From Oscillospiraceae bacterium (lineage in GTDB: Bacteria > Bacillota > Clostridia > Oscillospirales > Ruminococcaceae), in contig SFFJ01000007.1 in the NCBI GenBank assembly GCA_004557855.1, positions 1,933 to 65,932 of the forward strand: DNA of 64,000 nucleotides, in the 5' to 3' direction. Made by a program: the position numbers and the translations under genes. Within the stretch, counting starts at the first letter, position 1; each line of letters begins with the position of its first letter. This document shows positions 1-63,981 of the stretch, one piece after another. A model generated the notes under the pieces. That model was not told the DNA's origin. It did no database searches and worked only from the letters and a program-made list of their open reading frames with translations.

Positions 1-20
1 CATTTGAAAGGGGCCTTTTG

Positions 21-611
21 ATGAAAAAGCTACTTCAGCAGTACGGAAAAATCATTCTCTTCATCGTGGTGATTATTCTGCTTGTTTTCGGATTTAAGGA
101 AGCAAGAAGGACCTTTTTGGTCAGTGCCGGTAACCCGGAAAACAGCTGTCGTGGATACCGCACCATCAAACAGGTGGAGAAAAAGTGCGGGTTGGAAGGG
201 CTCCTGAATCTCGATGGTGTCCAGGATTGGTATGATACTTATTATTTCCTTACTTATCCAAAAGGTGACCCCAAGAACCCGACTGCGCTGGAAGGTATTT
301 ACTGCATGGAGAAGAACGACAACGGTTTCGTTCGTTATTGGATCTATTTTCCGCAGCAAGGAGATACGCTGGAAAGTTATATGGAACGAAACAACATAAA
401 GCCGACACCGGAACGGGAGGAAATTAAAATTACAGCCGTATCCGGTGAGACTATTACGGCCTATCGTTTTATAAAGCCGGATCAAGAGCCAACGGGAAGT
501 ATCTACCTGTTTTTTGAGCATGACGGACTTTATTACAGTATGCGCGTAAGAGATTCGATCGATGAAGTAAAGGAATACTGCGGCCTTTTATTATCATCCG
601 CAAATAAATAG
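21..611 (+). CDS. hypothetical membrane-anchored protein (N-terminal TM helix), low-GC accessory gene
   Basis: ORF 18..611 in track. RBS-like AAAGGGG precedes the ATG at 21. Hydrophobic N-terminus IILFIVVIILLVF. Local GC is far below the rest of the window. No recognisable family. Confidence 0.45.
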   Translation: MKKLLQQYGKIILFIVVIILLVFGFKEARRTFLVSAGNPENSCRGYRTIKQVEKKCGLEGLLNLDGVQDWYDTYYFLTYPKGDPKNPTALEGIYCMEKNDNGFVRYWIYFPQQGDTLESYMERNNIKPTPEREEIKITAVSGETITAYRFIKPDQEPTGSIYLFFEHDGLYYSMRVRDSIDEVKEYCGLLLSSANK

Positions 612-983: not shown

Positions 984-1012
984 TTGACATAATCCCCGTT
1001 TGTGAGTACAAT
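984..1012 (+). promoter_or_regulatory. consensus sigma70/sigmaA promoter driving the repeat array and toxin gene
   Basis: TTGACA at 984-989, 17-nt spacer, TACAAT at 1007-1012. Confidence 0.6.
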
Positions 1013-1036
1013 AATAGTACAGGGCAGAGATGCCTC

Positions 1037-1145
1037 AAAAAGCGGTGTACCCTACCATGAGTGGGAGCTAAAAAAGCGGTGTACCCTACCACGAGTGGGA
1101 GCTAAAAAAGCGGTGTACCCTACCATGAGTGGGAGCTAAAAAAGC
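1037..1145 (+). ncRNA. tandem 34-nt direct repeats (3.3 copies), putative type III antitoxin RNA (ToxI-like)
   Basis: Unit AAAAAAGCGGTGTACCCTACCATGAGTGGGAGCT at 1037-1069, 1070-1103 (T-to-C variant) and 1104-1137, with a partial fourth copy at 1138-1145. No spacers, so not CRISPR. The array sits between a promoter and a terminator immediately upstream of a ToxN-family ORF. Confidence 0.6.
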
Positions 1146-1147
1146 AA

Positions 1148-1180
1148 AGGGACGGGCTTTTTCAAGCCCGCCCCTTTTTA
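1148..1180 (+). terminator. intrinsic terminator between the repeat array and the toxin gene
   Basis: agggacgggc-tttttcaa-gcccgcccc hairpin followed by TTTTTA. Its position between repeats and toxin ORF matches ToxIN loci. Confidence 0.5.
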
Positions 1181-1202
1181 TATCATTTAAGGAGACGCAA
1201 AA

Positions 1203-1799
1203 ATGAGTTTTTCTTTTTATTGTGTGGAGCCAAGTTATTGTGACTATTTGCGTGAATACGACCCGAAAGTCCCATATACAATGGACAAGAAGAGTACAAG
1301 GCCGTTTATTGGAATAGTATTGAACATCAATGGGTTTGATTATTTCGCTCCACTAACCTCGCCGAAGCCAAAGCACTTAAAAATGAAAAACCAAATTGAT
1401 TTTCTCAAAATAAACAATGGTATTTGGGGAGCTATCAATTTTAATAATATGATTCCTGTTCCACAGTGCTGCCTATCGAGAATATCTATGGAGATTCTAC
1501 CGACAGATACACAGGATGAGATCGCATATAAAAATCTCTTAATGAACCAACTATCTTGGTGCAACATGAAACAACATACAGATGCTATTTTAGAAAAAGC
1601 GTTAAGACTCTATACTGTCATTACCACAGGCAGAGCGCGCAAGGAACTTGTCGAAAGATGCTGCGACTTTCATAAAGCCGAACTTCAATATTGGAAATTC
1701 GGTATTGCATATGGTGAACCTATCTCTGAAGCACATCAGGAGGTTATTGAAATTGTCCACAGAGCTACCCCGGACCCCACCGAAGGGCGCCGCCGGTGA
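1203..1799 (+). CDS. toxN: ToxN/AbiQ-family type III toxin (endoribonuclease)
   Basis: 198 aa. RBS AAGGAGA lies 7 nt upstream. The N-terminal region ...YLREYDPKVP...RPFIGIVLNINGFDYFAPLTSPKPKH...MIPV matches, from memory, the conserved ToxN motifs (FIGIVLEIQGHKYLAPLTSPKKWH in Pectobacterium ToxN). The locus architecture is promoter, repeats, terminator, toxin. Confidence 0.8.
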   Translation: MSFSFYCVEPSYCDYLREYDPKVPYTMDKKSTRPFIGIVLNINGFDYFAPLTSPKPKHLKMKNQIDFLKINNGIWGAINFNNMIPVPQCCLSRISMEILPTDTQDEIAYKNLLMNQLSWCNMKQHTDAILEKALRLYTVITTGRARKELVERCCDFHKAELQYWKFGIAYGEPISEAHQEVIEIVHRATPDPTEGRRR

Positions 1800-1806
1800 C
1801 ACCCGG

Positions 1807-1821
1807 TGTTCAAGTTGAACA
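1807..1821. promoter_or_regulatory. 15-bp palindrome TGTTCAAgTTGAACA (copy 3)
   Basis: Perfect inverted repeat 8 bp after the toxN stop codon. Confidence 0.5.
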
Positions 1822-1847
1822 AGAAAAGACTGGTATAAATAATAAGC

Positions 1848-1891
1848 GCCTTCCGGTAGTGGCATCGCATCCGGAAGGCTTCTCTCTTTCC
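1848..1891 (+). terminator. intrinsic terminator downstream of the toxin gene
   Basis: gccttccgg-(14-nt loop)-ccggaaggc is a perfect 9-bp stem, followed by the T-rich run ttctctctttcc. Confidence 0.55.
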
Positions 1892-27544: not shown

Positions 27545-27800
27545 AAAAAGCCCTGTCTTTCCGGACTTCTCTCCGGAAAAAACAGGGGCGATAAAGGCTA
27601 TCGCGGTACCACTCTGCTTCGGGCCTCTCTTGCGGGAAGGCCCCTCATTGGGCAGCTGTCACTGTCCGCACGATGTAACGGTCGAACCCGGCGCAGCCTA
27701 CTCTCACGGGGGAGGTGTTCGGTGCGCGGCTACCGAAAGGTACTTCATCCGTCCTACTCATCATTGCCTTGCAGCATCCGGCAACTCTCTGCAGATTTTG
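27545..27800 (-). promoter_or_regulatory. T-box riboswitch leader with terminator/antiterminator, upstream of the ABC transporter operon
   Basis: The minus-strand RNA contains GCAGAGAGU (GA/K-turn motif), the conserved T-box sequence AGAGUGGUACCGCGAUAGCC (plus 27596-27615) and an intrinsic terminator CCCUGU-UUUUUCCGGAGAGAAGUCCGGAAAG-ACAGGGCUUUUUUG (plus ~27556-27600). A candidate promoter TTGACT-17-TAAAGT lies on the minus strand near 27845-27875. Confidence 0.7.
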
Positions 27801-28183
27801 GGGCGGGTTACTTTTTTCCGGTCATCGCCTGTCATTTATGATGGTTGTACTTTAGCACTTTTATGCGGCAAAGTCAACAGCTTTTTTAAAGTTTTTTTGC
27901 GTTTTGGCATAGTGGGGGGATTTTCGGCAGGCGGCAGGCCGGTTTTGGGTAGAACGCACAAATTCCGGTGCAAAATCCGGGCGCCGGCAGGGGGCCGGTT
28001 GCATTACGGCAGCAAAGCGGGTACAATAGTGACAGACCGCTGCAAGCCGCAGGTGAGGGGGCCCCGCCCCCTGCGCCCGCAGGGCGCAGTCCCCGCCTTC
28101 GGCGGGGCGGCCCGGCTCCGCCGGGCCGGGCGGGGCCCCGCATCCCGCCGCCTGCACGCAGCCAAACAGGAAGGAGAAAACCG

Positions 28184-63906: not shown

Positions 63907-63981
63907 GGCCCGTTGGTCAAGCGGCTAAGACACCGGCCTCTCACGCCGGTAACGCGGGTTCGATTCCCGCACGGGTCACCA
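63907..63981 (+). tRNA. tRNA-Glu (anticodon CTC)
   Basis: GGCCCGTTGGTCAAGCGG...CCGGC-CTCTCAC-GCCGG...GGGTTCGATTCCCGCACGGGTCACCA. Cloverleaf readable. CCA encoded. Confidence 0.8.

Follow-up and report, generated by a model that had tools for sequence, protein, structure and literature searches.

A complete, probably active ToxIN module as one allele of an exchangeable cassette slot in a mobile element of an uncultured Oscillospirales gut bacterium

Type III toxin–antitoxin (TA) loci hold a promoter, tandem repeats, a terminator and a ToxN homologue in series (Blower et al., 2012, PMC3401426). In ToxIN_Pa of Pectobacterium atrosepticum (pECA1039) the ToxI antitoxin RNA consists of 36-nt units in 5.5 copies that are cleaved at AA/AU, in the AbiQ system of Lactococcus lactis (pSRQ900) the antiQ repeat of about 35 nt in 2.8 copies is cleaved at A/AAA, and ToxN_Bt of the Bacillus plasmid pAW63 cleaves at A/AAAA (PMC5086642). 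ToxI_Bt is a 34-nt unit in about three copies (2.9 published; 3.1 by Tandem Repeats Finder, TRF). Here, we describe a locus at positions 984–1891 of a 64,000-nt stretch of DNA from an Oscillospiraceae bacterium (contig SFFJ01000007.1; the whole stretch is referred to as the window). In our judgement it is very likely a complete and probably active ToxIN system of the Bacillus thuringiensis (Bt) branch and one allele of a slot that accepts different toxin cassettes. This slot occupies the end next to tRNA-Ser of an integrated element that bears a relaxase and is conjugative or mobilisable, in an uncultured Oscillospirales gut bacterium.

The anatomy of the locus, the families of its protein and RNA, and their conservation, covariation, context and allelic diversity were read directly from the window and its relatives. 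As in ToxIN_Bt, the order is promoter, ToxI array, terminator and toxN:

984–1012, + strand: promoter P1, sigma-70-type, TTGACA-17-TACAAT, agreeing at 11 of 12 consensus positions (a consensus match only)
1019–1036, + strand: 5' leader with a small hairpin, GGGCAgagaUGCCU, conserved in all cassette types of the slot
1037–1145, + strand: toxI antitoxin RNA array, three complete 34-nt units between tracts of five to six A
1146–1183, + strand: intrinsic terminator between toxI and toxN, stem 1146–1177 followed by a U-run (U5)
1189–1194, + strand: ribosome-binding site AAGGAG, 8 nt ahead of the toxN ATG
1203–1799, + strand: toxN open reading frame (ORF), 198 residues, a ToxN/AbiQ-family endoribonuclease by homology, with its core at residues 4–164
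1848–1891, + strand: hairpin GCCUUCCGG...CCGGAAGGC (stem 1848–1879) with a U-rich run, the probable terminator of the toxIN transcript

A preliminary description of this DNA had proposed a complete ToxIN/AbiQ-like type III module in a low-GC islet. All of the elements that it named were confirmed in place, from the promoter to the hairpin and the 198-residue ORF behind it, and the proposal of a complete module is supported by every computational test available. The GC content is 36–45% across the module and exceeds 60% from about position 2850 onward. The hairpin between toxI and toxN is strong (−20 kcal/mol, z = −4.5), and the same terminator logic is found in ToxIN_Pa and ToxIN_Ec. Since all four elements of a type III locus listed by Blower et al. 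(2012) are present, we file the module as a ToxIN-family type III TA system of the Bt branch.

The protein belongs to the ToxN/AbiQ family. Residues 4–164 match Pfam PF13958 (ToxN_toxin) with E = 5e-49 (167 bits against a cut-off of 25), and no other Pfam family is matched at E ≤ 1, so that the profile check proposed earlier for separating ToxN from CptN and TenpN came out for ToxN. The motifs FIGIVL, YFAPLTSPKPKH and MIPV, from which the toxin had first been recognised, all occur in the ORF. The PADLOC AbiQ profile is matched at 6.6e-35, and the exact protein already bears the JGI label 'protein AbiQ'; the module is a further member of the ToxIN family. Among solved structures, the best sequence match is ToxN_Bt (4ATO, 2.6e-23), followed by ToxN_Ec (7D8O, 4.9e-19), ToxN_Pa (2XD0, 2.5e-17) and, more weakly and over its N-terminal half only, AbiQ (4GLK, 2.8e-8). 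An AlphaFold (AF2) model built on 22 homologs (pLDDT 84.7, pTM 0.79, with a confident core) has the predicted ToxN fold, a beta core ringed by helices. Its top four Foldseek matches in the PDB are the same four structures, with 4ATO first, at probability 1.00 and template-modelling (TM) scores of 0.76–0.82 normalised to target length; CptN (4RMO, TM 0.52, E 0.018) and MazF lie far below them. Across the aligned structure, the window toxin and ToxN_Bt share only about 30% identity. The active site of ToxN_Pa comprises Y29, K33, T52, S53 and K55 (PMC5086642). T52, S53 and K55 are present here as in ToxN_Pa and ToxN_Ec; across the clade S53 and K55 never vary, and T52 is conserved to at least 90%. 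More than 1,100 homologs were found, and the exact 198-residue protein occurs in 301 blocks of the assembly collection, which amounts to hundreds of assemblies. The module is common in gut metagenomes of humans and animals. One relative, P0002 (192 residues, on a single 1-kb contig), is a deletion allele in which window position ~1566 is joined to ~2016: toxN breaks off near residue 121 and runs on into sequence of the P2 region, with loss of the toxin C-terminus, the right boundary unit of the slot and the promoter P2 (all but the first described below).

TRF reports a single array at 1037–1145 with a period of 34, 3.2 copies, 97% matches and no indels. The contiguous, spacer-free 34-nt repeats of the preliminary description therefore stand, whereas its copy number of 3.3 becomes 3.2. 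By chance the unit core would be expected 0.09 times in the window; it is present three times. The window unit, AAAAGCGGUGUACCCUACCAUGAGUGGGAGCUAA, and the pAW63 ToxI_Bt consensus, AAAAUUGGUGUAACCUUACCGUAGUAGGUGCUAA, are identical at 24 of 34 positions (71%) in an ungapped alignment. The antitoxin is thus homologous in sequence as well as alike in geometry, and the suggested resemblance to the B. thuringiensis layout, rather than to the longer Pectobacterium array, is upheld. Tracts of five to six A bound the three full units at 1037–1041, 1070–1075, 1104–1109 and 1138–1143; all four would fit the published A/AAAA site of ToxN_Bt, in line with the earlier proposal that the A-tract is where the toxin processes its RNA. 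We surveyed 80 ToxN loci from species-representative genomes by running TRF on their upstream regions. About 60 of the 80 have a tandem array of 34–39 nt, in most cases of about 3.2 copies, which lies 45–150 nt ahead of the toxin start codon, and the arrays have in common the core AAAAAGCGGUG..CC..ACC...GGGA. The window consensus unit recurs unchanged in three loci (L002, L004 and L009) whose ToxNs are only 54–65% identical to that of the window; the toxin has changed there far more than the RNA, which raises the possibility of cross-neutralisation between systems.

Pseudoknot folding of the unit, which the preliminary description had put forward as a check, was examined in an alignment of 50 distinct ToxI units. 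The model, drawn from covariation plus secondary sources, is an H-type pseudoknot, as in ToxIN_Pa and ToxIN_Ec. Stem S1 (GGU/ACC) pairs G7-C19, G8-C18 and U9-A17, and stem S2 (CCCU/UGGG) pairs C13-G28, C14-G27, C15-G26 and U16.U25; compared with ToxIN_Bt, one nucleotide is shifted from an S2 strand to loop 3. The predicted pairs are formed in 82.6% of alignment cells, against 40–60% when the partners are slid by one to three columns. Double-sided changes (GC to AU or CG to UA, in either direction) occur at three of the seven pairs, and the covariation score was reached by none of 500 shuffles. Units with one extra nucleotide keep or extend the helices (GAGU/ACUC in L062, CUUC/GAAG in L045). 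ToxI pseudoknots contain a conserved non-canonical U:U pair (PMC8860590), which the fourth S2 position, mostly U.U across the units, matches. Because ToxI sequences are highly conserved, these data lend the pseudoknot moderate support. The set of about 50 distinct natural variants is also a resource for the study of RNA–protein specificity. Two close ToxN relatives at 52–54% identity come from methanogenic archaea, namely the Methanolapillus millepedarum chromosome (L029) and a Methanosarcinales metagenome-assembled genome (L033); L029 has a ToxI-like array of 36 nt in 6.3 copies with compensatory changes in the S2 helix.

From the described relatives we infer how the module would work, in its cleavage, complex formation, toxicity and trigger. 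Transcription from P1 would yield a short leader and three 34-nt ToxI repeats. Most transcripts would end at the terminator at 1146–1183, and read-through would give the toxN mRNA; by analogy with ToxIN (PMC3401426), this internal terminator would keep the RNA in excess over the toxin. ToxN, acting as a sequence-specific endoribonuclease, would cut the precursor within the A-tracts between repeats. Each freed unit would then fold as a pseudoknot and bind two ToxN monomers head-to-tail, giving a closed, inactive complex in which 3:3 stoichiometry is expected, as in solved ToxIN complexes. If phage takeover or the element's loss brought transcription of the locus to a halt, the supply of labile RNA would not be renewed, and free ToxN would cleave A-rich cellular and phage RNAs and arrest growth. 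The module may serve in abortive infection, in stabilising the element that carries it, or in both.

Several points weigh against our assignment. Toxicity, antitoxicity, RNA processing and phage resistance would all follow from homology to the described systems, and we know of no demonstration of phage defence in the ToxIN_Bt branch. A paper on the role of ToxIN_Bt concerns plasmid retention (PMC4615649). Two of the five active-site residues of ToxN_Pa are not kept: K33 is replaced by R33, a change also found in ToxN_Bt, and the position of Y29 is a gap in the alignment, with no counterpart in the window protein. The existence of the truncated allele P0002 means that the module is not universally retained. 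On the RNA side, nested minimum free energy (MFE) folding of a single ToxI unit is no better than that of shuffles (z = 0.31), a result that is expected for a pseudoknot and lends it no support. A register-free pseudoknot search discriminates weakly, as 46 of the 50 units reach seven pairs but so do 48% of shuffles; owing to this weak null we rely on the column-wise counts. Rfam searched over 600–2900 at E ≤ 1 gives no family for the ToxI array, and at the gathering threshold over the whole window it gives only tRNAs and a distant T-box, with nothing for the array or the region behind P2. Folding of the whole leader revealed nothing besides the terminator.

Alternative modules at a fixed position of a mobile element, tandem cassettes and repeated boundary sequences are familiar from defence and TA hotspots and from integron arrays. 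The toxIN module has a comparable setting. It is bracketed by two direct repeats of about 110 bp, each made up of the palindrome TGTTCAAGTTGAACA, a spacer of about 70 nt with a hairpin, and a second palindrome, with a copy of one promoter behind each (P1 at 984, P2 at 1920):

848–862, no strand assigned: left boundary unit, distal palindrome TGTTCAAGTTGAACA, the exact point at which homology with slot variants L082–L087 sets in
936–950, no strand assigned: left boundary unit, second palindrome TGTTCAACTTGAACA, 88 nt away from the one at 848–862; the −35 box of P1 follows 34 nt downstream
1722–1799, + strand: 3' coding 'handle', encoding the C-terminal tail ISEAHQEVIEIVHRATPDPTEGRRR and the stop codon
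1807–1821, no strand assigned: right boundary unit, distal palindrome, 8 nt past the toxN stop
1894–1908, no strand assigned: right boundary unit, proximal palindrome TATTCAACTTAAACA, degenerate
1920–1948, + strand: promoter P2, TTGACA-17-TACAAT, nearly a duplicate of P1 and the same in all slot variants
2555–2644, − strand: tRNA-Ser(GCT), whose 3' end faces the element; the probable integration site

A metagenome scan for a 21-mer common to both boundary repeats returned 30 loci, and about 16 of these have a slot next to that same tRNA-Ser(GCT) with palindrome units on either side; the tRNA gene is constant beside every variant; the 21-mer was not found in viral contigs. The variants differ in the spacing of the palindrome units and in their cargo, and they all use one promoter, P1, and one 5' leader. 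The cargo comprises at least eight unrelated types: ToxN, three other type III-like modules, a PBECR4 nuclease (1e-44), two Fic proteins and a weak Cas2/VapD-like protein with a 104-residue partner. A 3.9-kb unit combines a PD-Lambda-5_A-like protein, a D12 methyltransferase and Fic. The three further type III-like cassettes encode a 191-residue, borderline ToxN-like protein and proteins of 210 and 226 residues with weak or no family matches. They are classed as such because each gene is preceded by its own repeats of 46–49 nt in about two copies and a terminator, and they are candidate new pairs of type III toxin and RNA:

L097, 3446–3546: repeat array of a further type III-like allele
L115, 10763–10868: repeat array of a further type III-like allele
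L106, ~140–235: repeat array of a further type III-like allele

The Cas2/VapD-like and PBECR4 alleles lack toxN and keep the promoter, the leader, one to three ToxI units and the toxIN terminator:

L095, L100, L108: one orphan ToxI unit
L090, L105, L110: two orphan ToxI units
L098, L101, L102: three orphan ToxI units

Given what they retain, these alleles go back to a toxIN cassette in which other genes took the place of the toxN body. Such retention of ToxI is to be expected if an addictive toxin can be displaced only while it is kept neutralised; alternatively, the orphan units may be plain evolutionary relics. The slot holds interchangeable toxin and defence cassettes at a fixed end of a mobile element in gut Clostridia, and homologous exchange between the boundary units would be the simplest account of its allelic diversity. 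To our knowledge, neither an exchangeable cassette slot of this kind nor an in-frame tail common to unrelated toxins, to which we return below, has been described before, and the preliminary description anticipated neither. Since ToxIN modules are common in Firmicutes, toxIN alone is of modest interest. The architecture outweighs it, with putative operator, terminator, promoter and leader on one side, a common tail on the other and diverse toxins swapped in between. The slot could serve as a discovery handle for new toxins and RNA antitoxins and, with its orphan ToxI units, a test bed for the displacement of addictive modules.

The 15-bp palindrome, TGTTCAA(G/C)TTGAACA, is paired at the cassette boundaries, 87–88 nt apart. 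Elsewhere in the element, a pair about 210 nt apart (L110, 2356 and 2566) flanks an inverted-repeat-rich, oriT-like region (resembling an origin of transfer) upstream of the nikA-relaxase operon, and a single copy lies at L113 2756, ahead of the ribosome-binding site of another gene. On account of these promoter- and oriT-proximal copies, the palindrome is probably an operator for a regulator encoded by the element, and recombination sites of the att, attC or dif type are less likely. The slot resembles defence hotspots and integron arrays in its fixed position, its alternative toxin or defence modules in different strains, its cassettes that can stand in tandem and its repeated boundaries between them. 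It differs in that each cassette has its own strong promoter and leader, and in that its boundary carries the paired palindromes and reaches about 85 nt into coding sequence. An integron gene cassette was considered and set aside on the grounds of this promoter and of boundary palindromes that recur at further promoters within the element; the retrieved flanks showed neither an integron integrase nor attC-like sites, and no integrase-family gene is listed in the 6–10-kb flanks, a limited range.

The right boundary also accounts for the end of the toxin. The last gene of every cassette ends, always in frame, in a tail of about 25 residues, ...AEAKQEAADRLRSIT(P/Q)DPTEGRRR, encoded by a handle of about 85 nt that is conserved in DNA and whose stop codon lies 8 nt ahead of the palindrome. 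The last 33 nt of toxN (1767–1799) are near-identical in DNA to the 3' ends of unrelated slot genes. The window ToxN ends in ...SEAHQEVIEIVHRATPDPTEGRRR and the stop codon, and the middle of its handle is diverged and AT-richer but free of indels. Unrelated proteins share one tail because the boundary reaches into their coding sequence, and, as the tail is common and in frame, the C-terminal extension of the window toxin is a tail encoded by the cassette boundary and not a ToxN feature. The preliminary description was right that a GC-rich extension exists: about 30 residues follow the Pfam core, which ends at residue 164, and their final part is GC-rich. It does not, however, set the protein apart from classical ToxN, since ToxN_Bt carries a charged C-terminal tail of its own and tails of 0–60 residues are common in the clade, where the closest relatives mostly have 165–180 residues; ToxN_Pa, at 171 residues, has none. 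Where ToxIN_Bt is alike in having a charged tail past the core, it differs in that the window tail comes from a repeated boundary common to unrelated toxins. Direct repeats also flank toxIN in unrelated Clostridial elements (390 nt in L004, 52 nt in L005, 53 nt in L021, and 68 nt in multiple copies in L009); in L004 and L005 the repeat begins inside the 3' end of toxN, so that the upstream gene and ToxN share a C-terminal peptide.

In the AlphaFold model the tail forms a low-confidence helix at 176–188 followed by a disordered, Arg-rich end, and the layout common to the slot toxins is an amphipathic helix followed by ...DPTEGRRR. That the tail serves a purpose at the protein level besides that of a recombination handle, for instance as a conjugative delivery signal or a common regulatory or degradation handle, seems unlikely to us. 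Delivery through conjugation has been shown for VbhT and anticipated for other TA toxins (Harms et al., 2017, PMC5675462), and the tail may be a short, positively charged C-terminal signal of this sort, sending toxins through the conjugation machinery into recipients ('addiction at entry'). If so, it would be a candidate for conjugation-coupled toxin delivery in Gram-positive bacteria, with the corollary that orphan ToxI might act as anti-addiction immunity that lets one cassette displace another. An exhaustive search of 1.8 billion representative proteins gave 13 tail matches, of which seven are real and all are short, and a word-index search besides gave only 20 short remnants. The tail is rare in this form, and all that the census shows is that no widespread domain is involved, since full-length proteins with the tail were probably clustered, at 50% identity, under representatives that lack it.

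Turning to alternatives to a working system with both roles open to it, the module may function as a type III TA system whose selected role is purely addiction or stabilisation of the integrated element, by post-segregational killing when the element is excised or lost, with phage defence no part of it. We consider this possible, if on the improbable side. The module sits at the end of a relaxase-bearing element, its slot also holds classical addiction-type toxins (Fic, Cas2/VapD-like, PBECR4), and the retention of one to three ToxI units where toxN has been replaced is expected if loss of ToxI is lethal while ToxN persists. Moreover, ToxIN_Bt, the closest characterised system, is reported to promote plasmid retention (PMC4615649). 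Nevertheless, the family is defined by abortive infection (AbiQ, ToxIN_Pa), and the slot has defence-type cargo as well, in the PD-Lambda-5_A-like protein and its methyltransferase. The two roles are in any case compatible, and sequence data cannot separate them.

That toxIN is instead a decaying, non-functional relic carried along with the islet is very unlikely. Decay does occur around it: besides P0002, members of 44–103 residues are found in the cluster of the protein, and remnant ORFs of other toxins, 39–67 residues long, persist in the slot. The window ORF, in contrast, is intact and recurs as a 100% identical protein in hundreds of assemblies; toxN DNA is 99.3–99.7% and toxI 98–100% identical across hosts whose flanks have diverged by 16–26%; and the TS.K catalytic motif, three intact repeats, promoter, terminator and ribosome-binding site are all preserved. 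Least credible of all is another type III family (CptIN or TenpIN), or repeats that are no antitoxin at all: a 45-residue ORF (1002–1139) does overlap the array and the gene order is common to type III families, but ToxN_toxin is the sole Pfam match, CptN is a far weaker structural match, 34 nt in about three (3.2) copies fits ToxIN whereas CptIN-like arrays of ~47–49 nt in about two copies occur in other slot alleles, the repeats are contiguous and lack the spacers of a CRISPR-like array, the unit is homologous to ToxI_Bt, and the variation among homologous arrays preserves base pairs, which points to a structural constraint on the RNA.

The carrier of the module and that of ToxIN_Bt are both of conjugative type; however, ToxIN_Bt is on a plasmid, whereas the window module lies in a chromosomally integrated element of a high-GC Oscillospirales anaerobe, whose type II topoisomerase B subunit shares 82% identity with proteins of Angelakisella sp. 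(Oscillospirales). The segment 848–2759 is 96–100% identical between contigs, while the neighbouring SpoIID, extracytoplasmic-function (ECF) sigma and GdpP genes are only 74–84% identical; from this difference we conclude that the segment, and toxIN with it, crosses between diverged hosts. To the left of toxIN lie genes for a MobA/VirD2-type relaxase, NikA/MobC-like, ArdC-like anti-restriction and sigma-70-like proteins and secreted peptidases. No attL copy of the tRNA-Ser 3' end was found within the retrieved flanks.

Between P2 and the tRNA gene, two further features were noted:

1955–2150, + strand: structured non-coding region of about 195 nt after P2, ending in a terminator-like hairpin, constant in all slot variants
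2102–2073 and 1981–1968, − strand: convergent promoter-like and terminator-like sites overlapping the P2 region

Folding of the P2 region gives z = −3.1 on the + strand and −4.7 on the − strand. It has no Rfam match (600–2900, E ≤ 1) and no credible ORF; the ORFs in 1937–2496 are without family matches, and we therefore treat that interval as non-coding.

Variable cargo is also inserted directly beside the first palindrome (848). Variants L082–L087 carry a 2.5-kb insertion immediately to its left (window 834/848 against L082 3166–5645) that encodes a 328-residue protein and a Peptidase_M23 protein, and L081 and L088 have Peptidase_C39_2 and 368-residue proteins at the same place, making it a second variable spot by the slot. 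Further left, a low-GC ORF of 197 residues at 18–611 (+) has an N-terminal hydrophobic segment and only a sub-threshold Pfam match (Lreu_0056_like, E 0.014); it is probably additional cargo of the element. Elsewhere in the window, a T-box leader at 27581–27834 (−), at 94.2 bits against a gathering threshold of 93, and a further tRNA gene at 63907–63978 (+) are ordinary chromosomal features.

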